From positions 1-29,715 of the forward strand of contig JAXHUS010000343.1 in NCBI GenBank assembly GCA_034189305.1: a DNA stretch of 29,715 nucleotides. The letters run 5' to 3'. Origin of the DNA: Thermodesulfobacteriota bacterium (GTDB lineage Bacteria; Desulfobacterota; WTBG01; JAXHUS01). A model generated the notes under the pieces. The model was not told the origin of the DNA, made no database searches, and saw only the letters and a list, made by a program, of their open reading frames with translations. Shown here in pieces: positions 11,603 to 28,904 of this stretch. Made by a program: the position numbers and the translations under genes. Every line of letters begins with the position of its first letter. The first letter of the stretch is position 1.

Positions 11603-12649
11603 ATGAAAATATTAATTGTAAAACTCAGTTCCATTGGAGATGTTGTTCATACTTTACCTGTCCTCCCCGCAATCTTAAATAAATTGCCAAAAGCAAAAAT
11701 CGACTGGTTGATTGAGGATGAGGCAACGGAACTTGTCACAGACCATCCCCTTTTAAATAAGGTTATTATTTTTTATCGCAGGCATTGGATAAAAAATTTT
11801 TTCTTTGCAGATTTCTTTAAAACACTCAGGGAAGTTAAGGACTTTTTTCACTTTTTAAGGGAGGAAAAATATGACCTTATCATTGATTTTCAGGGACTTT
11901 TCAAAAGCGGAATTTTAACCTTTTTTGCAAAAGGGAAAAGAAAGCTGGGATACGATAAGACACGGGAATTGAGCCATATCTTTTTAAATGAAAAAATTCC
12001 TCCCTGTAATATAGAAAATCACGCTGTAAAAAGGTATTTGAATCTTCTAAAACCCTTAAATATAGGAATAACAAGCCCTGAATTCCCTCTTCCATGTCTA
12101 AATGGGGCTGCAATATGTGTAGATAAACTTTTTTCTGAAGCCGGAATCAACAAATTTAAACCTATAATATCCATAAGCCCTGCAAGCAAGTGGGAAAGCA
12201 AGACATGGGGTACTGAAAAGATTGCGGTTCTTTCTGACAGACTTATAAAATATGGAATGCAGGTAATTTATACCGGGAGTGAAAAAGATACTTTATTGGT
12301 TGAAGATATAATAAGTTTCATGAAGGAAAAACCGATCAATTTGTGTGGAAAAACATCGTTAAGGGAACTGATTGTTGTTTTTAAAAAGTCAAGACTGGTT
12401 TTAACTGTTGATTCAGGTCCAATGCATATTGCCGCCGCCGTACAGACTCCGTTGGTAGCATTATTCGGACCCACATCACCCGGGCGAACCGGGCCATACA
12501 GTCATAAAGCAACTGTAATTCAAAAAAATATATCCTGTAGCCCCTGTTTTAAAAAAAGATGCTCCCACAAGAGCTGTCTAAATGAAATTTCCGTGGAAGA
12601 AGTTTTTCAACAGATATCGGTTAAAATAGAAGAGGAGGAAAAAATATAA
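11603..12649 (+). CDS. waaC: GT9 LPS heptosyltransferase (WaaC-like)
   Basis: N-terminus MKILIVKLSSIGDVVHTLP, then DFQGLFKS, DSGPMHIAAA and LFGPT; typical GT9. The WaaC vs WaaF assignment is tentative. Confidence 0.8.
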   Translation: MKILIVKLSSIGDVVHTLPVLPAILNKLPKAKIDWLIEDEATELVTDHPLLNKVIIFYRRHWIKNFFFADFFKTLREVKDFFHFLREEKYDLIIDFQGLFKSGILTFFAKGKRKLGYDKTRELSHIFLNEKIPPCNIENHAVKRYLNLLKPLNIGITSPEFPLPCLNGAAICVDKLFSEAGINKFKPIISISPASKWESKTWGTEKIAVLSDRLIKYGMQVIYTGSEKDTLLVEDIISFMKEKPINLCGKTSLRELIVVFKKSRLVLTVDSGPMHIAAAVQTPLVALFGPTSPGRTGPYSHKATVIQKNISCSPCFKKRCSHKSCLNEISVEEVFQQISVKIEEEEKI

Positions 12650-12711
12650 GGTTTATTTGTATTTATCATGACTACAATTTATAATTCTTCATAATAATTC
12701 AGGAGGAAAGA

Positions 12712-12882
12712 ATGTCCATAAGCAAAGAATTATTAGATATTTTAGCCTGTCCCAAGTGCAAGGGGAGCATTTACTTAAACAAGGAAGCCAATGGTCTTAT
12801 ATGTGACCATTGTAAATTGCTCTATGAAATAAAAGACGATATCCCTATAATGCTTATTGATGAAGCAAAAAAAATTGACTAA
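12712..12882 (+). CDS. Trm112-like / YcaR (UPF0434) small zinc-finger protein, 56 aa
   Basis: Below the ORF-track cutoff. MSISKELLDILACPKCKG...LICDHCKLLYEIKDDIPIMLIDEA matches the family pattern; AGGAGG RBS. Confidence 0.9.
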   Translation: MSISKELLDILACPKCKGSIYLNKEANGLICDHCKLLYEIKDDIPIMLIDEAKKID

Positions 12883-12894
12883 AAGATATGCATA

Positions 12895-14409
12895 ATGGCA
12901 AAAATTCTTTTTATCTACCCCAATCTTAATACCCAGGTGGGTTTCAATTATGGCCTTGCGTATATTTCCGGCGTATTAAAAAAGGCGGGACATGAAACCA
13001 GACTATTAAATATTAATGAAGACCTGGGCTATCCTCTTGATTTTTCCCGGATAAAATCCGATATAATCTCTTTTTCTCCGGATTTAATCGGATTTTCCGC
13101 CCTCACCAACCAATTCAATTATATAGAAGAAATTGCCCGAAAGATAAAAGGAACTTTCAAAATTCCCATAATCTGCGGAGGCATCCATGCCACCATGGAC
13201 CCTGAGGGGGTTTTAAATACCGGTCTGTTTGACTATGTGTGTGTAGGAGAGGGTGAATATGCCCTCCTTGAACTACTGGAAAGTTTGAAAAAAGGCATTC
13301 CCTCATACAATATTCCCAACATCTGGTACAGGACAAAAGGGGAGATTATAAAAAATAAGGTACGTCCCTTTGTTGACCTTAACAGCCTGCCCTTTAAAGA
13401 CTATGAATTATTTGACTTTCAGAACATTATAAAGGCTAAAAACGGTTGGGTTGGCCTCATGACTTCAAGGGGCTGTCCATTTCGCTGCTCTTACTGTTTT
13501 AACCACCAGATGGTTAATATTTATAAAAAAGATCTGGGTATAAAGTCGGAATCAAAAGGGCTGAATTATATGCGCAGGCATCCTTTAAAGGAGATAATAT
13601 CCGAGATAAAATATTTAAAAGAGCATTATCAAGGTATCAAAACTTTTATTTTTGATGACGACCTCTTTACCTTAAATAAAGATTATATAATTAAATTTTG
13701 TGAGGCTTATGCCAATAATTTTGATATTCCTTTTGTAGTGAACGCCCATGTGAAAGTTTTTGACAGGGAAATTGCCGGCCATCTTAAAGAAGCGGGATGC
13801 CAGATAGTAAAGTTCGGCCTGGAAAGTGGAAGTGAAAGGCTTAGAAGAAAAATATTAAACAGGCAAATGACTAATAGGGAAATTTTAGAAGCATTTAACA
13901 ATGCCCATGAGTTTAACCTGCATTCATCAGCCTTTGTTATTATAGGTTTTCCTTACGAAGAGAGAAAAGATCTTTTAGCCACCATAAAACTACTGTCACA
14001 AATTAAGCCTGGAAGATTTCGCTGGTCAATCTTTTTCCCTTATATTAATACGGAAGCGTATAATATCAGTAAAAAAGGAGGATTTATTGATTTTAAAAAA
14101 ATGGAAAGTTTAAGTAACTTCACTGACTGGTCATGTCTTAAATTTTCTCCTTACCATGATCTGTTTATCAAAAAACTGAAAATGGCACTTCACTGGTATG
14201 TCAACGGCCTGTCGGATTTTCCGTCTTCATCCACTTATAAAAAATTGGTTGAAGAAATTGAGAATATGGATTTAGAAATGTGGGAAAGATTTTCAAAGGA
14301 CTTATTCATCAAAGATGAAAAAATCTCAAGTTCTCTACAAAAGGTAGGCAAAGAGCATTACGCTATTAAATATAATGATTTTATGGCTGTAAAGATTGAA
14401 AATAGTTAA
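12895..14409 (+). CDS. Cobalamin-dependent (B12-binding) radical SAM protein
   Basis: N-terminal B12-binding-like domain (GLAYI...PDLIGFS...GGIHAT...VCVGEGE), CxxxCxxC in RGCPFRCSYC, then FDDDLF and FGLESGS. Confidence 0.9.
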   Translation: MAKILFIYPNLNTQVGFNYGLAYISGVLKKAGHETRLLNINEDLGYPLDFSRIKSDIISFSPDLIGFSALTNQFNYIEEIARKIKGTFKIPIICGGIHATMDPEGVLNTGLFDYVCVGEGEYALLELLESLKKGIPSYNIPNIWYRTKGEIIKNKVRPFVDLNSLPFKDYELFDFQNIIKAKNGWVGLMTSRGCPFRCSYCFNHQMVNIYKKDLGIKSESKGLNYMRRHPLKEIISEIKYLKEHYQGIKTFIFDDDLFTLNKDYIIKFCEAYANNFDIPFVVNAHVKVFDREIAGHLKEAGCQIVKFGLESGSERLRRKILNRQMTNREILEAFNNAHEFNLHSSAFVIIGFPYEERKDLLATIKLLSQIKPGRFRWSIFFPYINTEAYNISKKGGFIDFKKMESLSNFTDWSCLKFSPYHDLFIKKLKMALHWYVNGLSDFPSSSTYKKLVEEIENMDLEMWERFSKDLFIKDEKISSSLQKVGKEHYAIKYNDFMAVKIENS

Positions 14410-15439
14410 TCCGCAAAAGATAATAATCCGTACCCCTAACTGGCTGGGAGACCTCATTATGGCAATTCCGGCCTTTAACGCAATAAAGCAAAAGTTTACC
14501 AGGGCAGAAATTACCCTTCTCATAAAAAAACCTTTAGTAAAAACTTTAAATAATAGTACTTTTTTTAACAACATCATAGAATTCGATCCTGAAAATCTTC
14601 ACAGGGGTGTGAAAGGCTTTATAAGACTGCTGGGAGAATTGCGCAAAGAAAATTTCGACCTTTGTATACTATTTCCAAAATCTTTCAGTTCTGCAATTAT
14701 TTTCTTTTTATCAGGCATAAATATTCGCTGGGGCTTTAACTGCAATGCCAGAGGTTTTATGCTTACCAATAAAATTCCGCTGCCCGACAAAATAATTCCA
14801 ATGGTTGATCTCTATCTGAATTTAGTGGAAGGATTAACAGGAGGATGTCAGGAAAAATCTTTTACTCTTTCTACCTCCCATGAGGAAAAAATGAGATTAG
14901 AAAATATCTTTTTTCAGCATAATATGAATAATCAAAAAATTATTTCAATAATACCAGGGGCTTCATTTGGTAGTTCAAAATGCTGGAAAGAAGAATATTT
15001 TTCACGACTTGCAGATTATTTAATAGGGGAATATAAGGCTCAAATTCTGATTTTACCAGGGCCCGGAGAAGAAGGGATCGCCAGGGAAATTGCAGGGAAA
15101 ATGGAAAATAATTGTGTAGTCATTGCAGATCCGCCATTACCCCTGGATATGCTTAAAGCAGCGATAGAAAAAAGCTGGCTTGTTATATCAAATGATACAG
15201 GGCCCAGGCATATTGCTGCCGCATTACAAAAGCCGGTAGTGGTAATAATAGGTTCTACCGACCCTGGATATACAGATTATGAATATGATAAAAAGCTTAT
15301 AATAAGAAAAGAGCTTGATTGCAGTCCCTGTCATCTTAAATCCTGTCCAAAAGAACATGATTGCATGAAACTTATTACCCCGGAAGAAGTTTTTTCCAGA
15401 ATAAAAGATTTTGTAGGTAAAAGAAGCATGGAAATGTAA
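14396..15439 (+). CDS. waaF: GT9 LPS heptosyltransferase II (WaaF-like)
   Basis: IIIRTPNWLGDLIMA, PGASFGSSKCW and SNDTGPRHIAAA; TTG start overlaps the radical SAM gene by 14 bp. Confidence 0.85.
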   Translation: MKIVNPQKIIIRTPNWLGDLIMAIPAFNAIKQKFTRAEITLLIKKPLVKTLNNSTFFNNIIEFDPENLHRGVKGFIRLLGELRKENFDLCILFPKSFSSAIIFFLSGINIRWGFNCNARGFMLTNKIPLPDKIIPMVDLYLNLVEGLTGGCQEKSFTLSTSHEEKMRLENIFFQHNMNNQKIISIIPGASFGSSKCWKEEYFSRLADYLIGEYKAQILILPGPGEEGIAREIAGKMENNCVVIADPPLPLDMLKAAIEKSWLVISNDTGPRHIAAALQKPVVVIIGSTDPGYTDYEYDKKLIIRKELDCSPCHLKSCPKEHDCMKLITPEEVFSRIKDFVGKRSMEM

Positions 15440-15541
15440 TAGGATGCTTAACCCAAGTTCATGAAAGAATAAGAGATAGTGTCTAAAATTTGCCGGATCA
15501 CAAAGGGGCAATTTCTTAAAATCAAGGTTTACATAATTAAT

Positions 15542-18500
15542 TTAACCCAGAATAATTTCCAGTTCATTGCGAGTAAGACGATTTTTTTCCATCAGCCTTT
15601 CTACAAGATGGTCTAAGGACTTGCGGTGCTTTCTAAGTTCATCAATAGCATAGATAAGTTGAGAGTTAATAATTTTCTCAACGGACTCTAAGACCTTAAT
15701 GGCCAATGGCCCGTCATTAAGATTTTTTGGGTTAATAGCCACCTGTCCGATACCTTTTTCCATGCCGTAATCCCTTACCATTAGCCCTGCATAATGGGTT
15801 GCCCTTTGAAGATCACCGGCAGCACCAGTGGTAAGTCCATCATCATCTCCGTAGTAAATGATCTCAGCAGCCCGTCCTCCCATAGACTGTCTAATTATAC
15901 CTTCAAGTTCTGACTTGCTATATATTATTCTATTTTCATCCGCCTCACGCTCTACAAAACCATCAGTTTTACCCCGGGCCACAATAGTGATTTGAACAGG
16001 CTTTTCACCACGTAGCCAGCCTATCAAACAATGCCCGGCCTCATGACGCGCCACCCGCAGTAAGGTCTGTGGGTCAGTTTCACCCTTCATTTCCCCCATG
16101 CGTATCTGTTCAAAGGCATCTTCCACGGTTTGATCCGTAATAACACCATTACCAAAGGAGGCCTTTCGTCCCGCCAGTTCCACAACACGCTCAAGTTCTG
16201 CTATGGTCATATTCGTCGACTGTCCTGCCATACGCTTAATTATCTCGTCGGATACATTCCGTCCCCTTTTCCCCTGAAGGCGATTTTTAAGATAATCAGC
16301 ACGTGCAGCCCGATCCGGTTTGTCAACTTCGATTTCACGGTCAAATCGCCGCCGCAGGGCATCATCGAGATGTTCGACCAGATTGGCGGCTGCAATTACA
16401 ATAACGGGCTTTTTCCCCCAGGCCTCGAAACCTTCCATTTCAGTGAGGATGGCATTAAGTGTTTCATCATATGCCCTGTTGCCGAATTCGCCTCGTTTTC
16501 TACCTATTGCATCGATTTCGTCAATAAAGAGAATAGTGGGGGCATACCGACGGGCCCTTATAAAAAGATTTCGGACATTTTCAGGCCCGCTTCCAACATA
16601 TTTGGTAACAAAATTAGTTGCTGCATCTACGATAAAAGTGGTATTACATTCACCGGCCAGTGCCCTGGCCAGCATAGTTTTACCCGTTCCGGGGTGGCCG
16701 TAAAGGAGGATCCCCCGGGGAGGTCGAAGGCCCATTGCACTGTATTGACGGGGATTCTTTAGCCAATTTACAATATATTTAAGTTCTAACTTGGCAGCAT
16801 CCGCTCCATATACATCAGCAAAGCCTATAGTTGGTCGTTCCACATCATGGAGTATCTCCAGGACATCATCGGCATCCATTGCCCTCGTAAGGCGGAAGTT
16901 TCGCAGGCGTACCGTAATGCTCCGATCCTGGTTTGAGACATATGGAGCGGTATCAAAAGTGAGGACTTTATGTTGTGAAGCCAGTTCACGTGCCTTGCGT
17001 TCCAGGAAAATACATTCGGCTGTTGTTATGAGGGATGTTATAAAGTCGTTCAGGCTGGCTTTCCACTTTTCTGTTTCCGAGGAGAGGAATGTAGTTTCTA
17101 TAACTCCCCTTGCACCACCTGAGTGTACACAGGTATGAAAAAGTTCATCATCAATACCCGGGCGAACCACATTTTTATTTCCGAATGTGAGGAGATAACA
17201 AGGGATTTCAGGATGCTTTTCATGAATCATACGAAGCAGTTCCTGTCCTTTTTTAATGACGTTGGCGGCTGCTGGAACATGGTCAAACTGGTATTGGGTT
17301 TCACCTGAGATGGAAGGCGTCACATCATCCTGGTCAGTCTGGCGGAACCAGAGATCCAGCAAAACAAAATCGATTTCTTCCTCTGATAGAATATTGAGGA
17401 CATCCGGAGTATCATTTGCAATTTTCCATTCCACTTCTGGTATGTGTTTGGACCAGAGTTCACTGAGGAATTCATCAGCTACGAGTACAACCTTTGGCTT
17501 TTCCTGTGGTTCCATAAAGGTTTTTATCTCCCCTGGTATAGTATCCAGCGAATCGAGAGCAAATATGATTCTATCAATATTTTCCATTATGGAATCAAAA
17601 CGTTCAGACTTAAAAAGTCTTGAAATTTGAAACATCTCCGATTTAACAAATGACTCTGCCTGAGAACGTATGGTACGTGCATCTGAAGCAGCACCTTCCC
17701 TGAGAACAATGCACATGGGTACAAGGGGACCAAATTCAATATCTTTATAATATTGCTTTTCCAGAAGACCGGCCATTCGTTTCATCTCTGTTGCAGCAAT
17801 CCGTTCTAATTCGTTAACTCCCAGGTGGTTGAACATCAGGGGATACCCTTCAGCCATACGGGAACAGATGGTTTGAGGGAAAAAAGGTTTTCCGGTACTT
17901 TGATCTTTCTCGTTCTCCAGGGCATTTAAAATCGTTTTTCGCTGGAAATTTGTATTGGCAATATGAACACCGGAGGCGTTTGGATCTTCGTACAGCTGCC
18001 TGCCAGCATTTGTTGTGAAAATTATAGTAGTATCACAAAAAGATATACTTTCCTCGGTGAATTGGTCCTCTAATACACCATGGTCAAGAATTTGCAGAAA
18101 AAGATGAATCACGTCCAGATGAGCTTTTTCAATTTCGTCAAATAAGAGGACAGCATTAGGGTGTTTATTGACGAAACCCGTGAGCCGGCCTGAATTAGCC
18201 CCCTGGTAACTGCGCTGCATGCCCGTTAAATAATGGACACTTACCTGGTGATCGGAGTAGCTGCTCATATCAAACCGCTGAAACGGACGTCCGAGAGCCT
18301 TAGCACCGCATTCGGCCAGATAAGTTTTTCCCACACCTGGGGGTCCGGAAAAAATAAAAACAGCCTTTGGCCTGTTTCGGTCCGTTTCTGCTGTTGCCAC
18401 TACTTCTGCACTAAAAAGACCATCTGCAAAAGCGTTAATGGCCTGATCCTGACCAAAAATGTTGTTCTGAAGCCGGGAGCGAAGTTCTTTTAAAGTATGA

Positions 18501-20098
18501 GCTAATTCACCCATTCCCATAACAGAAATGTCCCGGGCAAAAAGTTCAGCCAGCAATTCCATCACGTCTTCTCTTGAAGCAGTTGGTATTTTCAGGAGAT
18601 TGCATACCTCCTGGGAAATAGCCATTGCGCCTGCAACATGCCTCAGGTCGATAAGGCCGGGCTCCAGATTGTCAGGTTCCGCTATGGCCAATTCTAATGC
18701 AATGGCAAGCAACCTTTTCGCCCCTTGAGAGAAGGGAACATAAATCATGGTAACAGGAGCGTAGTCAGGGGAAACTTCTTTTATGGACTTTTTCAATTCC
18801 ATCATTGACATTCCCAGAAACTGAGATAATGTGCCTGCAAGCTCATTAAGCTCAAGGGAGGCCGACAGGAAACACTTTATGCCGATTCCATTTTTATCAA
18901 ATCCATCCTTCCACAAATTGTATAAAAGGTCTTTAAGTCCTTCAGCTCTACCATTAAAAAAGAGAGGTTGTTCTAATTCATCTCCGTCTTTTTTACGTGG
19001 AATAGTACGGTCAGCAGAGGGGATAACCGGGATTCTGTCCGGTATCTGGATATGGGGATTGGAATAAAGCACTACCTGATGACAGTTACCGGTCATTGCT
19101 TCATGTTGTTCAGATAATCTTTTTGCTTCATCTTCCTGTACAAAGAGCATCACACAGGGAGACCGTTTAACAGTCACAATTTCGTCCTTTAATATATTAA
19201 TACAAGTGTTTAGATTATTTAAGGATTTATAGAAGAAATGACCTGTAATTACCACAATGTCGGTTTCATTGTCTGATGCTTTACGTATAATCCGGCGCAG
19301 CTTTTCTTCAGAAAGATGATCTGGTTCATTTATTTGCCGGGGAAGGATAACCTCCACGGCCGTCCATTTTTGTTGATTTTCCCCTCTGTCCGTATCTTGT
19401 CGGGAAATTAACTCACATATCATTGTTTCAAAACATTCACGAACCACTAATTCGTTTTCACCGATAAGTAGCACCGGTTTCATTCTGGAGTGTATAACAT
19501 AACGCTCCAGCGCATGGGCCTGGACTTTTCGAGACGCTAAGGGTTTGATCTGTCCACTGGATGCCAGAAAGACCAGATCACGTTCTTGAAAATCTTCCTG
19601 GTCATAGCGTATGTCATCGGTAACGTCGTTTCCAAACACTTTAACGGAAGTTTCAGCACCCAGTATTTTTTCCAATAAGGCTGAAGGACTTTTTAGAATT
19701 GTACGAAGAAAATGGTTAATAGTCACAAAAGGGGTCTGTTCTTTCAATGATAGTTCTTCGGCTTTTATAAAAATCTGCCTTGCCTCATAGGACCGATGGA
19801 GCACATTGCCTTTGAAGGGTGAACCCCCTTTACCTAAAGCCTTCCTGAGGTTTTTACGTAGAGATGTTGAATCAATTCCCTGATCTTTTAAAACCGCACG
19901 TACATCTCTCAGTTCCTTCTTTATATGTTCCAGCAAATCTGATCCCGGGAATAACTTCTCGAGATACCCGTCCTCAAGTTCCGAGAATTTAAGAATTCCG
20001 GCGAGAAGATGTTCGGGCTGAATATTCCCGAATTCAGCTACTATGGCTTCTCTTGCCGCAAGATTCATTATAACCTCAATGCTGGGGGATAACTTCAT
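15542..20098 (-). CDS. Soluble multidomain AAA+ protease: Clp-N, degenerate ClpA-D1-like region, second Clp-N, ClpA/B-D2 ATPase, receiver-like domain, FtsH-type AAA, peptidase M41
   Basis: Clp-N (EHLLAGILK); Walker A GPPGVGKT (18323-18346) with LLFDEIEKAH; REC-like DFVLLDLW (about 17354); Walker A GHPGTGKT (16676-16699) with ILFIDEIDAIG and SRH LDDALRRRFDR; HEAGH (16031-16045), GGRAAE and TGAAGDL; no obvious transmembrane segment. Confidence 0.9.
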   Translation of the reverse strand: MKLSPSIEVIMNLAAREAIVAEFGNIQPEHLLAGILKFSELEDGYLEKLFPGSDLLEHIKKELRDVRAVLKDQGIDSTSLRKNLRKALGKGGSPFKGNVLHRSYEARQIFIKAEELSLKEQTPFVTINHFLRTILKSPSALLEKILGAETSVKVFGNDVTDDIRYDQEDFQERDLVFLASSGQIKPLASRKVQAHALERYVIHSRMKPVLLIGENELVVRECFETMICELISRQDTDRGENQQKWTAVEVILPRQINEPDHLSEEKLRRIIRKASDNETDIVVITGHFFYKSLNNLNTCINILKDEIVTVKRSPCVMLFVQEDEAKRLSEQHEAMTGNCHQVVLYSNPHIQIPDRIPVIPSADRTIPRKKDGDELEQPLFFNGRAEGLKDLLYNLWKDGFDKNGIGIKCFLSASLELNELAGTLSQFLGMSMMELKKSIKEVSPDYAPVTMIYVPFSQGAKRLLAIALELAIAEPDNLEPGLIDLRHVAGAMAISQEVCNLLKIPTASREDVMELLAELFARDISVMGMGELAHTLKELRSRLQNNIFGQDQAINAFADGLFSAEVVATAETDRNRPKAVFIFSGPPGVGKTYLAECGAKALGRPFQRFDMSSYSDHQVSVHYLTGMQRSYQGANSGRLTGFVNKHPNAVLLFDEIEKAHLDVIHLFLQILDHGVLEDQFTEESISFCDTTIIFTTNAGRQLYEDPNASGVHIANTNFQRKTILNALENEKDQSTGKPFFPQTICSRMAEGYPLMFNHLGVNELERIAATEMKRMAGLLEKQYYKDIEFGPLVPMCIVLREGAASDARTIRSQAESFVKSEMFQISRLFKSERFDSIMENIDRIIFALDSLDTIPGEIKTFMEPQEKPKVVLVADEFLSELWSKHIPEVEWKIANDTPDVLNILSEEEIDFVLLDLWFRQTDQDDVTPSISGETQYQFDHVPAAANVIKKGQELLRMIHEKHPEIPCYLLTFGNKNVVRPGIDDELFHTCVHSGGARGVIETTFLSSETEKWKASLNDFITSLITTAECIFLERKARELASQHKVLTFDTAPYVSNQDRSITVRLRNFRLTRAMDADDVLEILHDVERPTIGFADVYGADAAKLELKYIVNWLKNPRQYSAMGLRPPRGILLYGHPGTGKTMLARALAGECNTTFIVDAATNFVTKYVGSGPENVRNLFIRARRYAPTILFIDEIDAIGRKRGEFGNRAYDETLNAILTEMEGFEAWGKKPVIVIAAANLVEHLDDALRRRFDREIEVDKPDRAARADYLKNRLQGKRGRNVSDEIIKRMAGQSTNMTIAELERVVELAGRKASFGNGVITDQTVEDAFEQIRMGEMKGETDPQTLLRVARHEAGHCLIGWLRGEKPVQITIVARGKTDGFVEREADENRIIYSKSELEGIIRQSMGGRAAEIIYYGDDDGLTTGAAGDLQRATHYAGLMVRDYGMEKGIGQVAINPKNLNDGPLAIKVLESVEKIINSQLIYAIDELRKHRKSLDHLVERLMEKNRLTRNELEIILG

Positions 20099-20716
20099 CA
20101 GTCTATCCTTTCGTGAAGTATATGGGATTTGTATTGAATTTCCCAGACATTGGACAGGAATTTCAGGAGACTTAATATCAAAAAGATATTAGACACATGA
20201 ATTTTTTTGATGATGTTCATTATAAAGGATCCTGACCTTATAATCCTTTGCCAGGTTAATAATGCGGGCGGCACGTTCTTAACATATAATTTTTGTATGG
20301 TTAGGCTACCCTTTTTAATGTTGAGTGTGACCATTGAAGACAAGGTTATTTCCTTAAGTAAATACTTGTTTATGTCAACCTTAAACAAATATATAAATTT
20401 CTATTAGTTAGTCAAGAATTTAATGATATTATGAATAATATTTTAAGGCAGTTATATAATACATTATGTGTTCCTAATCAAGTGACTATAGGCATTATTG
20501 AACTTTATATGGGGATTTGTTAGAAAAAACAGGAAAAATATAGTATGTTATATGAAAAATTAATTTTAAGATCGAATTAATATACCCCAGGATTAACCCA
20601 TTGTAATGTTGACCCTTAACCTTTACAAACAGAAAGTTTTCCAGCGGGGCAAAAAAGGAAGATAAAAGAGTTAAAGTAAAAGAGCAATATAATTTGAATA
20701 AGGAGGCTATTTTCAT

Positions 20717-21718
20717 GTGAATAGAGAGAAAATGAATAAAATGGAAAGGCTTATATCTAACTTTAATAAGGCTAAAATCGGTGTTATAGGCGATATTGTT
20801 GCAGATTTTTACGTCTACGGCAAACCTTTCAAGCTTTCAAGGGAAGCTCCGGTTCTGGTAATTCGCCATGACGGAGAAAAGATTATTCCTGGAAGTGCAG
20901 GAAATACAATTAATAATCTGGCCTGTCTGGAAGCAAATGTATACCCGGTGGGAATTATAGGTAATGATAAAGAAGGGGAAGCAGTTATTAACTGTTTTGC
21001 CGGAAAAAAGGTTGTCCTTTCTGGAATTGTAAAGGATAGATCATGGGTTACTATAAGTAAAACAAGGATAATGGCAGGAGATGACAATACTTCAAAGCAG
21101 CAGGTAATCCGCATAGACAGGGAACCAATGAAAAAGATAACAACAAAAATGGAAAAAAGGATAATTTCCAACTTAAAGGACATTGCCGGTGAGATTGATG
21201 CTTTAATTGTTGCTGATTACAGCTACAATTTAATTACACCTGTTATATTAAAGGAAATTTTAGCAATAGCCAGGAAAAAAATTGTTGTTGTTGACTCCCA
21301 TCATCAACTGAAAGATTTTAAAGGAGTACATATTGTCACTCCCAACCAGGGAGAAGCAGAAGAAGCTACAGGAATAACTATAAAAAATGATCGGGATTTA
21401 GAACAGGCGGGGGAGAAACTGCTAAAAGGTTTAAAAAGCAAGGCTGTTTTAATAACAAGGGGTAATGCAGGAATGGCACTATTTGAAGTCGGAAAAAATA
21501 TGAATAAAATACCCATTTTTGGAAGGGATGATATTACTGATGTAACAGGGGCGGGGGATACTGTGACTTCTGTATTGACCCTAGCGCTGGTAGCTGGAGC
21601 ATCATTAATAAAGGCGGCATATCTTGCAAATTATGGTGCATCTGTTGTAGTTATGAAAAGAGGAACTGCCACTTTAACAGGAGAGGAACTATTAAAAAGA
21701 ATTAAGAAAGATGAATAA
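20717..21718 (+). CDS. D-glycero-beta-D-manno-heptose-7-phosphate kinase (RfaE domain I / HldA-like, PfkB family)
   Basis: SREAPVLV, PGSAGNT, VTPNQGEA and PfkB motif DVTGAGDT; GTG start after an AGGAGG RBS. Confidence 0.9.
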   Translation: MNREKMNKMERLISNFNKAKIGVIGDIVADFYVYGKPFKLSREAPVLVIRHDGEKIIPGSAGNTINNLACLEANVYPVGIIGNDKEGEAVINCFAGKKVVLSGIVKDRSWVTISKTRIMAGDDNTSKQQVIRIDREPMKKITTKMEKRIISNLKDIAGEIDALIVADYSYNLITPVILKEILAIARKKIVVVDSHHQLKDFKGVHIVTPNQGEAEEATGITIKNDRDLEQAGEKLLKGLKSKAVLITRGNAGMALFEVGKNMNKIPIFGRDDITDVTGAGDTVTSVLTLALVAGASLIKAAYLANYGASVVVMKRGTATLTGEELLKRIKKDE

Positions 21719-22196
21719 AATAATACAGAATGAAAAAATTTTGATGGAAACCATTGAAAATTTGAAAGCTTCTGGAAAGACAATAGTTTTTACAAATGGC
21801 TGTTTTAACTTACTTCATGTAGGCCATATAAGAAGCTTAAAGGATGCTAAAAATCTGGGTGATGTGCTAATCGTGGGAGTAAATGATGATAAATCGATTG
21901 AGTATTTAAAACGCGACAAATACCCCCTGATAATTCCCGTTGAAGAGAGAATGGAAATTTTAGCTGCTCTTAGTATGGTAGACTATGTAATCCGATTTTC
22001 TGAATTAAGTGCAGATAATTTACTATTAAAGATCAGGCCGCAAATATATGCAAAAGGTACTGATTATACTAAAGATTCTGTACCTGAAAGGGATACTGTC
22101 CTATCATACGGAGGGGAAATAGAAATTGTAGGGGACCCGAAAGAACATTCAGTAACGGAATTATTTAACATTTTAGGCCGGCAAAAGGGGGCATAA
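21711..22196 (+). CDS. Heptose-1-phosphate adenylyltransferase (RfaE domain II / HldC-like)
   Basis: VFTNGCFNLLHVGH (HxGH), GVNDDKS and KGTDY; overlaps the kinase gene by 8 bp. Confidence 0.9.
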   Translation: MNKIIQNEKILMETIENLKASGKTIVFTNGCFNLLHVGHIRSLKDAKNLGDVLIVGVNDDKSIEYLKRDKYPLIIPVEERMEILAALSMVDYVIRFSELSADNLLLKIRPQIYAKGTDYTKDSVPERDTVLSYGGEIEIVGDPKEHSVTELFNILGRQKGA

Positions 22197-27411: not shown

Positions 27412-28904
27412 GAGGTACTTGCAAAATTATTAAAATGAATAATTTTCTTATTACTTAAAAGGGAAAGAAAATAGCTGATGACCTCCTAATTATGATAAAA
27501 TAGAGGTATAAAGAAGAAGGAGGTCATCATGGTAAAATTATTTAATAACCTATCACATTACTGGCGAAGAATACAACTAAATCTTTTCCCCTGGTTAGAG
27601 GAAGAAATTGGTGAACTGAACGAGAAACAACAACAACTTGTTGCCACTCTGGAGCTTGTACGAGTTGAGGAATGTATACAAAGCAGATATGGTTTTCGGG
27701 GTCGACGGCGTAAAGAACGTGCTGCCGTGGGACGTGCTTTTGTTGCTAAAGCTATATATAATATGCCAACGACAAGGCATTTATTGGATCGTTTATTGAC
27801 AGACAAAACAATGAGATGGATTTGTGGATGGGAAAGGAAGAGTGATGTACCGAGCGAATCCACATTTTCCAGAGTTTTTGCGGAGTTTTCCGAGAGTCAA
27901 TTACCCGTGCGTGTCCATGCTGCATTAATTGAGAAGAAGCTTTCAAATGAACTTATTGGACATATTTCACGGGATTCTACTGAGATTGAGTCACGGGAAA
28001 AACCGAAGAAGAAAGAGAAGGTCAGGACAGAGTCTGGTGGAGATGAGCCAAAAAGGAAGCGAGGTCGTCCTAAGAGAGGAGAAGAGCGGGTTAAAGAACC
28101 GACACGATTGGAGAGGCAGCAAACCATGACATTAGAGGAGATGCTGGAAGATTTACCCAAAGATTGTGATATTGGCAGTAAGAAGAACAGCAAGGGGTAT
28201 AAAGAGACCTGGATTGGATACAAGCTGCACATAGATGTTTCAGATGGTCAGATTCCCATCAGTTGTATTTTGACTTCAGCATCGTCTCATGATAGTCAGG
28301 CGGCATTACCACTGGCAGAAATGACAAACCAAAGGGTTACAAATCTGTATGACCTGATGGATTCAGCATATGATTCGCCGATTATTAGAGGACACAGCAA
28401 ATCTTTAGGCCATGTAGCGATAATTGACATCAATCCTCGAAGGAATACGAAATTAAAAGAAGACCTAAGGACAGAAGCGAAACGTCTTGAAATTCTTCAT
28501 TTTGAACGACCTGAAGACCGTCGTTACAATGAGAGGACAAGCATTGAAAGAGTGAATGGCCGACTTAAGGATGAATTTGGAGGAAGAATGGTGCGAGTTC
28601 GAGGTCATACCAAGGTGCTGACACATCTTATGTTTGGAATACTGGCTTTAGCAGCCGATCAATTATTTCGGCTTATTATGTAGTTTTTTTAAAATTTGTA
28701 CAATTTAGCTCTTGAAAGACGCTAAAATAAGGCGTAAGGATAAGTTATGCTTAAAAAAAGCAGCAAAATTTACTAAAGTTTCTATTTTTTCTAAATTAAA
28801 TATATTATTGGTAAATTTAAGTGAGTTTATAAATAAAAGTGTCATATAATGACTATCATATTAAAAATATAAATTATTTTGCATTTGAATTTTGCAAGTG
28901 GCTC
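27412..28904 (+). mobile_element. Insertion sequence, 1,493 bp, with 17-bp imperfect terminal inverted repeats
   Basis: IRL GAGGTACTTGCAAAATT (27412-27428) and IRR AATTTTGCAAGTGGCTC (28888-28904) match at 15/17; no target duplication longer than 1 bp is visible. Confidence 0.88.
27529..28683 (+). CDS. DDE transposase (IS4/IS5-like DDE_Tnp_1 type, DUF772-like N-terminus)
   Basis: VPSESTFSR, ISRDSTEI, GYKLHIDV, LMDSAYDS and YNERTSIERVNGRLK (DDE residues); AGGAGG RBS. Confidence 0.9.
   Translation: MVKLFNNLSHYWRRIQLNLFPWLEEEIGELNEKQQQLVATLELVRVEECIQSRYGFRGRRRKERAAVGRAFVAKAIYNMPTTRHLLDRLLTDKTMRWICGWERKSDVPSESTFSRVFAEFSESQLPVRVHAALIEKKLSNELIGHISRDSTEIESREKPKKKEKVRTESGGDEPKRKRGRPKRGEERVKEPTRLERQQTMTLEEMLEDLPKDCDIGSKKNSKGYKETWIGYKLHIDVSDGQIPISCILTSASSHDSQAALPLAEMTNQRVTNLYDLMDSAYDSPIIRGHSKSLGHVAIIDINPRRNTKLKEDLRTEAKRLEILHFERPEDRRYNERTSIERVNGRLKDEFGGRMVRVRGHTKVLTHLMFGILALAADQLFRLIM

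Follow-up and report, generated by a model that had tools for sequence, protein, structure and literature searches.

What kind of machine is encoded by a gene that joins, in one reading frame, the motor of a Clp/Hsp100 unfoldase to the motor and peptidase of FtsH? Most AAA+ proteases are assigned to one of a handful of set designs: ClpXP/ClpAP, Lon, FtsH, HslUV and the proteasome. The protein considered here, P0001, is encoded on a 29,715-nucleotide contig of a Thermodesulfobacteriota bacterium (JAXHUS010000343.1, assembly GCA_034189305.1; this whole stretch is the window below), and its family contradicts the usual separation of Clp-type and FtsH-type motors into different machines. From the N terminus, its modules are Clp_N, a dead Clp D1, a second Clp_N-like domain, D2, a receiver-like domain, a helix with a beta-hairpin, an FtsH-type AAA module and an M41 peptidase (Table 1). 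Judged by their sequence motifs, both AAA+ modules and the M41 active site are intact. On balance, we think that the protein is probably a soluble, self-contained, ATP-dependent metalloprotease, an accessory two-ring AAA+ machine under the control of Ser/Thr phosphorylation. New here are the fusion with a partner protein, a docking model for that partner, and a kinase cassette in environmental lineages.

The architecture is neither an isolated curiosity nor an assembly accident. A homologue search over 5.8 billion proteins returned 4780 matches among 8000 scored candidates, and AAA_2, AAA and M41 occur together in all 120 homologues listed. By sequence the architecture is not singular: at least 120 clusters from many phyla share the core of D2, receiver-like domain, FtsH-type AAA and M41. 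In the ESM Atlas, AAA is combined with AAA_2 and/or M41 in at least seven clusters, each of 62-197 members and bearing no more specific name than 'AAA family ATPase' or similar. The original prediction, made from the letters of the window alone, knew of no characterisation, and our literature search likewise found no published characterisation of this architecture.

The source genome is a metagenome-assembled genome (MAG) from a marine metagenome, 2.99 Mb in 580 contigs and 80% complete, and such fragmentation would favour a chimera of clp and ftsH genes created by assembly; a decaying pseudogene would be a further artefact. Against this, a Logan contig of 18,131 bp, a separate assembly though possibly from the source sample, covers the whole gene without a single difference. 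In another sample from that study, 29 of 30 bins were covered at >=99% identity; three substitutions and no joints were seen. The module order is identical in more than 100 homologues found by protein search and BLAST, full-length homologues with 60-66% identity occur in other assemblies, and every catalytic motif is intact. The start at M1 is backed by residues 1-10, which are kept across 105 homologous N-domains. The gene is therefore real and intact, and the artefact reading, which now deserves almost no credence, is already refuted; the assembly join that the original prediction had named among the things that would refute it is absent from these contigs and samples.

Conservation of catalytic motifs was counted over the 120 homologues. 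D2 matches Pfam AAA_2 (residues 576-717, E 4e-33, 115 bits against a cut-off of 27) and carries Walker A (585-592, GPPGVGKT), pore-loop Y631, Walker B (D654/E655, DEIEK), sensor-1 (T695-T696-N697) and the GA..DAR motif (802-808); Walker A, Walker B, sensor-1 and GA..DAR are conserved at 95-100%. The NCBIfam models of ClpA, ClpB and ClpV align to residues 506-820, and those of ClpK and ClpG also match D2; none of the equivalog models attains its cut-off. The FtsH-type module matches Pfam AAA (residues 1130-1259, E 8e-49), with Walker A at 1134-1141, the pore loop Y1167-V-G, Walker B D1193/E1194, sensor N1239 and R1250/R1251. Here, too, Walker A and B, the sensor Asn and the two Arg residues are conserved at 95-100%. 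The pore-loop position is aromatic in both modules, Y or F at 631 and W, Y or F at 1167, bar one His at 1167. Peptidase_M41 (PF01434) covers residues 1348-1514 (E 4e-30, 105 bits against a cut-off of 29.9), and H1352, E1353 and H1356 of the HEAGH motif (1352-1356), together with the third ligand D1429, are found in 119-120 of 120 sequences. The intact D2, FtsH-type AAA and zinc peptidase that had first been read from the translation are thus borne out by the family.

FtsH (MEROPS M41; TIGR01241; soluble crystallised fragments such as 4ww0 and 2ce7) can be aligned over the full length of the last 430 residues, the best sequence matches in the PDB being FtsH fragments (E 2e-77, residues 1086-1513). 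Shared with it are the Walker motifs, an aromatic residue in the pore loop, the second region of homology, the sensor Asn, the Arg fingers, the HEXXH motif and the third-ligand Asp. The protein differs from FtsH in having no transmembrane helices or periplasmic domain, approximately 1090 residues of Clp-type and receiver-like modules standing in front instead. The FtsH equivalog TIGR01241 gives 341 bits against a cut-off of 600 (model positions 155-598, residues 1087-1513), and the Arg-finger stretch reads ...L-R-R-R-F-D..., whereas that of canonical FtsH is of the R-P-G-R-F-D type. No membrane anchor was found anywhere in the protein, where the highest 19-residue Kyte-Doolittle mean is 1.18, in agreement with what had been predicted.

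The N-terminal half is that of a class I Clp/Hsp100 protein (ClpA, ClpC, ClpB, ClpV) in the order and folds of N-domain, D1 and D2, in its active D2, in the G-x-x-x-S-[YF] pore loop and in the GA..DAR sensor-2. It differs in that D1 has no Walker A, Walker B or lid and is a separate polypeptide in many lineages, in the second N-domain placed between D1 and D2, and in a protease that is fused (M41) and not recruited (ClpP). No M-domain was seen, and the ClpA and ClpB equivalogs give 162 and 130 bits against 993 and 1232. Nor is there an IGF/L loop for ClpP docking, as had been noted; the position of the ClpA IGL (residues 708-711, 17966-17977) reads [E/A/R]-[T/S]-G-[V/I] across the family, with a near-invariant Gly (116/120). 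This loop may be a remnant of the docking loop, perhaps now facing the FtsH-type ring. The protein is FtsH-like at its C terminus and class I Clp/Hsp100-like at its N terminus, yet it fails the defining features of both.

We next consider the region in front of D2. The first N-domain, N-A, exceeds the gathering score of Pfam Clp_N and has the fold of the ClpC N-domain, so the Clp-N repeats proposed at the N terminus are present. Its signature (E17, P28-E29-H30, K37, E40, R81-R82-R85, G89, G91, H101-R102-S103) is kept in fused, direct and split architectures (105 N-domains). Behind it lies what is, by profile and model, the large subdomain of a first Clp AAA+ module that has lost both Walker motifs (unrelated residues stand at the positions of Walker A and Walker B) and the lid subdomain. 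Pfam is silent for residues 160-390 and 370-540, which were scanned in pieces, single-sequence searches of residues 150-395 and 1-540 against the PDB gave no match, and an exhaustive phmmer search with residues 150-395 found only four proteins. A profile of residues 1-380 (A3, 71 sequences) that took in the split partner proteins described below did match the D1 large subdomain of ClpC, ClpB and Hsp104 in the PDB (E 1e-25), and the dead D1 is recognised only with these partners included. An AlphaFold2 (AF2) model of the N terminus, with a predicted local distance difference test (pLDDT) of 87, agrees: Foldseek matched it to ClpC, ClpA, ClpB and a 1-360 fragment of Hsp104 (E 1e-12). The second Clp-N pair also proved to be present, as the family profile A4 matches ClpC N-domains; this domain, N', carries a conserved PD-x-x-x-PG loop (residues 474-483).

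Sorting of homologues by BLAST coordinates separated three forms. In one, of about 1170 residues, an N-domain like residues 1-147 is joined straight to the core from about residue 527. Another, of about 1140 residues, starts with a domain like residues 380-530. The third, of about 1500 residues, is full-length like the window protein (P0003-5, at 60-66% identity, P0034 and P0085). In 4 of 4 loci examined for the 1140-residue form (L013, L015, L016 and L017), a gene for a partner protein of 336-345 residues lies 15-35 bp upstream of the core. This partner consists of Clp_N and the dead D1 and aligns with residues 1-356 of the window protein, stopping where its low-confidence linker begins; roughly 65 partner clusters were found, several of them misnamed as ClpA or ClpC fragments. 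Since a separate upstream partner aligns with residues 1-356, the window gene reads as partner plus core in one chain, and we conclude from these alignments that it is a fusion of two partners that other lineages encode apart. The Clp-N repeats and degenerate D1 of the original prediction are present, then, not as an internal vestige but as the fused copy of a separately encoded partner.

That the partner docks on the core is supported by a predicted complex of residues 1-380 with residues 380-835, which scored 0.64 against 0.00 for the best of three controls. Scores this high were obtained for 58 of 80 solved complexes and for 2 of 110 mismatched pairs, figures that apply only approximately here, since the alignments supplied were our own. 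In the model, the dead D1 (192-206 and 340-358) would lie against N' (453-483 and 520-527), so that the partner part would dock onto N'. Comparing N' with the partner profile by hhalign gave no information, as N' was itself part of two long-form fragments included among the partner sequences. A pair that is split in some lineages and fused in others points to an adaptor.

Table 1. Modules of P0001, with their positions in the protein and in the window.
Feature	Residues	Window positions	Strand	Basis
Whole open reading frame P0001		15542..20098	(-)	1518 aa + stop, one uninterrupted frame
N-A, Clp_N double repeat	1-150	19649..20098	(-)	Pfam Clp_N E 2e-6; AF2 pLDDT >93
Dead D1, alpha/beta large subdomain of Clp/Hsp100 first AAA+ (predicted)	~170-345	19064..19591	(-)	profile and Foldseek
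Linker, low confidence (pLDDT 54-60), fusion joint	346-379	18962..19063	(-)	partners end at ~356
N', second divergent Clp_N-like domain	380-530	18509..18961	(-)	profile A4 against ClpC N-domain, E 4e-7
Active ClpA/B-type D2 AAA+	~540-830	17609..18481	(-)	AAA_2, motif conservation
Receiver-like domain (CheY fold, modelled)	~865-1010	17069..17506	(-)	AF2, Foldseek, profile against PDB, column counts
Long helix and conserved beta-hairpin	1012-1041; 1044-1072	16883..17065	(-)	AF2, pLDDT 90-98
Active FtsH-type (classic clade) AAA	~1090-1335	16094..16831	(-)	Pfam AAA, PDB matches, motif counts
M41 zinc peptidase	~1345-1518	15545..16066	(-)	Peptidase_M41, conserved zinc site

Between the two motors lies the module that the original prediction took for a receiver with a flavodoxin-like fold and a candidate phospho-Asp. 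In the AF2 model built on alignment A1 (residues 830-1085 with 117 homologues; pLDDT 86.7), this region forms a five-stranded beta-alpha domain, a 30-residue helix and a long beta-hairpin. Foldseek matches in the PDB are almost exclusively receivers (NtrX, HupR, ArcA, NtrC1 and CheY; E 3e-6, target-normalised TM-score ~0.7), and the A1 profile also matches receivers in the PDB, with a weak Response_reg (PF00072) match in 91 of 118 homologues. The modelled fold of the middle domain is thus that of a receiver, as expected. Helix and hairpin lead into the FtsH-type AAA, and A1 columns 215-237 (residues 1044-1066, K L F T ... R L R) are nearly invariant; an insert at 926-940 of the receiver-like domain is variable and of low confidence. 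A stand-alone homologue of residues 824-1118, about 273-300 residues long, is encoded at L044:9356-10240 (G119:C1, minus strand; tblastn E 2e-17, profile E 2e-32). Neither an AAA nor an M41 domain was detected next to it, which indicates that the middle module also exists alone.

The mechanism first proposed was that Asp915 is phosphorylated by a histidine kinase or acetyl phosphate and thereby gates the protease. The CheY fold suits this mechanism, as do the near-invariance of Asp915 at the end of beta3 (119/120), the Ser/Thr at 971 at the end of beta4 (109/120; T971 here) and the retention of D875/E876 at the position of the metal-binding acidic pair after beta1 (A874-D875-E876). However, the position of the receiver Lys after beta5 (T1002) is Thr or Ser in 102 of 120 sequences and never Lys, and Asp at 875 is found in only 45 of 120. 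The protein's own Response_reg match is weak (E 0.009, 16.7 bits against a cut-off of 30.2), and no histidine kinase is a recurrent neighbour among 12 sampled loci of relatives, only one of which has such a gene, at its edge. His-Asp phosphorylation is consequently doubtful as a means of gating, and we consider it quite improbable. What does resemble a known arrangement is that of NtrC-type proteins (NtrC1, NtrX, DctD), in which a receiver stands directly N-terminal to an AAA+ module and which provide the best structural matches of the middle domain; they differ in belonging to another AAA+ clade, and the window protein has no DNA-binding domain and a receiver without the Lys, set between two AAA+ modules. 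Receiver domains control AAA+ ring assembly in NtrC-type activators. Given that NtrX and NtrC1 are the top fold matches, the receiver-like module may likewise control ring assembly or coupling.

The hexamers solved for Clp/Hsp100 proteins and for FtsH suggest, by analogy, the model that we propose. Six chains would stack as a hexamer in which the Clp-D2 ring replaces the FtsH membrane anchor as the assembly platform and serves as the first unfolding motor; the FtsH-type ring would be the second motor, from which substrate would enter the M41 ring, the degradation chamber. According to PMC5095350, the membrane anchor drives hexamerisation of FtsH-type proteases, and a Clp ring in its place would be a natural route to a soluble FtsH. 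The receiver-like domain, helix and hairpin, placed between the motors, probably control assembly or coupling. Choice of substrate or activator most likely takes place in the N-A Clp_N domain with its invariant basic patch. The family has this domain in three arrangements: on the core itself, on the ~340-residue partner that would dock on N' of the core, or fused, as in the window. Of the soluble double-ring unfoldase-protease put forward in the original prediction, solubility, two AAA+ modules of different clades and the Clp_N domains all hold, and the stacking of the rings is an extrapolation. The proteins should be tractable for biochemistry and cryo-EM, being soluble.

What would control such a machine is suggested by the genes beside its relatives. 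A Hanks-type kinase is encoded within 8 kb in 10 of the 12 loci, and each of the 12 has one or more of a kinase, an FHA domain and a WD40 protein. FHA-kinase, PP2C, kinase-WD40 and protease follow one another in this order in L028, L030, L042 and L043, four loci from at least three different assemblies, two of them GTDB species of the window's own phylum; beside the closest full-length homologue, P0003, the kinase-WD40 gene lies upstream and FHA-kinase and PP2C downstream. The kinase-WD40 proteins are 30-37% identical over ~1200-1470 aligned residues in five of seven compared, and this full-length homology makes them one family travelling with the protease. Phosphorylation, which the original prediction had invoked in its His-Asp form, may therefore matter in another form, with Hanks-type Ser/Thr kinases, FHA and PP2C recurring beside relatives. 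The likeliest reading is that the family forms the proteolytic arm of a switch based on Ser/Thr phosphorylation, acting either through a mark on substrates or through activation of the protease, and the window copy would be a horizontally acquired, stand-alone, fused version with no cassette nearby.

A precedent is the McsB/ClpC phospho-arginine (pArg) system of Firmicutes, in which a kinase is also encoded with a Clp_N-bearing AAA+ protease, and E29 of the window protein, kept in 93 of 105 N-domains, aligns with ClpC E32, a residue of the pArg1 pocket of the ClpC N-domain (PMC12583610). Here, by contrast, the kinases are of the Hanks Ser/Thr type with WD40 or FHA, McsB is not among them, and the Glu of the second pocket (ClpC E106) is not kept. 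Together with the kinase neighbours, the match of E29 to ClpC E32 makes the reading of a phospho-mark by N-A an attractive idea. In its fullest form, a Ser/Thr 'phosphodegron' system, the kinase-WD40 protein, tuned by FHA-kinase and PP2C, would mark targets, the basic patch of N-A would read the mark and the machine would destroy the target, and the fused form in the window would be a minimal, portable reader and shredder. This version rests on analogy, and we would bet against it in so specific a form. Even so, the cassette link makes it possible to ask by experiment whether phosphorylation-directed proteolysis exists in bacteria outside the Firmicutes pArg system.

Several points weigh against a protease under Ser/Thr phosphorylation control as the identity of the window protein. 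No kinase, FHA or PP2C gene was found within ~15 kb on either side of the window gene. A tblastn search of the window's own genome found, on small contigs elsewhere, one PP2C gene and six genes for Hanks kinases, and neither a kinase-WD40 orthologue nor a cassette-like arrangement was found in the assembled 80% of it, so the kinase link may not apply to this copy. The 12 loci are a sample and no census. Stacking of the rings and hand-over of substrate between two AAA+ clades are drawn from analogy, the ligand of the basic patch need not be a phospho-residue, and the complex score could partly reflect the model's memory of contacts between Clp N-domains and D1.

How the family is distributed bears on two further explanations. 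It was scored by the middle-domain profile at E <=1e-20, with only the six best first-look candidates per genome considered. None of 40 same-class relatives gave a match on this basis; among 400 further genomes of the phylum there were 3 with the gene, and among 400 further genomes of the phylum of L013 there were 0. Named matches come from Syntrophobacteraceae, Nitrospirota, Chloroflexota/Anaerolineae, Planctomycetota and 'Humimicrobiia', to which ESM Atlas clusters add Bacillota, Campylobacterota, Pseudomonadota and Melainabacteria; a single-protein search of genome contigs for related loci gave no relative. The family is rare, patchy and spread over phyla. The window gene itself is a compositional outlier, with 44.1% GC against a genome mean of 37.4 +/- 2.5% in 4.5-kb windows, 0.2% of which are as high. 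GC at third codon positions is 39% against 28-36% for its neighbours, and the flanking lipopolysaccharide (LPS) genes have 35-37% GC. This composition fits horizontal insertion between a waaF-like gene and an hldE-like pair.

One explanation is a general stress or quality-control protease, or a disaggregase-protease, that handles misfolded cytosolic proteins with no dedicated signalling input. Clp_N domains and D2 rings handle aggregates in ClpB/ClpG-type disaggregases, the ClpK and ClpG models match D2, and the window copy stands alone, all of which suits such a role. Yet about 1% or fewer of the sampled genomes were found to carry the family, and its relatives are tied to one specific kinase family. 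The source genome, moreover, already holds canonical FtsH and ClpA/B/X-type genes elsewhere, which makes the window gene an extra. We therefore regard a general housekeeping role as unlikely.

A conflict or anti-phage effector is compatible with the same molecular machine: on detecting an invader or some perturbation, the kinase-WD40 protein would turn on the protease, which would degrade proteins of the invader or of the host in an abortive infection. In support of this are the rare and patchy spread, the outlying composition, the mobile-element, WYL/WCX and rhomboid neighbours at some loci, and the fact that WD40 and TPR arrays are typical sensor modules of NTP-dependent conflict systems (PMC7159879). 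On the other side, PADLOC 2.0 gives only generic AAA matches (IetA, DolB, TRIP13) and kinase-domain matches and none for the partner, no known defence gene flanks the window gene, and in these phyla kinase-WD40, FHA and PP2C genes also serve ordinary signalling in development. A conflict role is hence possible without being probable, and signalling proteolysis under Ser/Thr phosphorylation control is the reading that we prefer.

One described conflict system merits direct comparison. In the MoxR-vWA ternary conflict systems, the FtsH component has two FtsH-type AAA modules, the first of them inactive, and MoxR and vWA proteins as partners (Kaur et al. 2020, PMC7159879). The likeness lies in a soluble FtsH-type AAA+ protein in patchy accessory clusters of morphologically complex bacteria, with ClpN and beta-propeller domains also in common, and the difference in the first motor, which in the window protein is an active Clp D2. 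Neither MoxR nor vWA genes were found in the window or listed among the domains at the 12 loci, and the window protein is not the FtsH component of these systems.

Other features of relatives' loci are recorded here. At L013:12064-15602, L014:12948-19029 and L017:14873-15637 there are a WYL/WCX regulator with an RCC1-repeat protein, several transposases with a resolvase, or a rhomboid protease. Five homologues of 1420-1720 residues (P0019, P0031, P0033 at L029:8001-12458, P0037 and P0063) are three-motor variants, with a tandem of two FtsH-type AAA modules after D2 and the receiver-like domain and before M41; the L029 copy is preceded by a WD40 protein and a rhomboid protease.

In the window, the protease gene is flanked by LPS-core genes, a convergent GT9 heptosyltransferase gene on one side and a divergent pair encoding a pfkB kinase and a cytidylyltransferase on the other. 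Two frames beside it were not counted as genes: one of 96 codons directly upstream (20098-20388, TTG start), which has no family match and consists of AT-rich, promoter-like DNA, and one of 95 codons (15224-15511), which runs into the last part of the convergent glycosyltransferase gene. No RNA run was found to contain the stretch. A scan for promoters and terminators stayed overall at chance level. Its best sigma-70-like match (20388-20415, minus strand; TTGACT, 16-nt spacer, TATATT) falls within the AT-rich 330 bp that separate the protease gene from the divergent pfkB gene, ~290 nt before the start codon of the former. Farther out in the window are ATP sulfurylase, a polyketide/fatty-acid megasynthase cluster, two NrpR genes and an insertion-sequence transposase. 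The transposase gene (DDE_Tnp_1/DUF772, 27529-28683) lies ~7 kb from the protease gene, past the two convergent NrpR-family genes. The LPS inner-core cluster occupies 11603-15439 and 20717-22196; in it, two GT9 heptosyltransferase genes flank one for a B12-binding radical-SAM enzyme, and the pfkB kinase and separate cytidylyltransferase, a split HldE-like pair, lie across the protease gene from the GT9 cluster.

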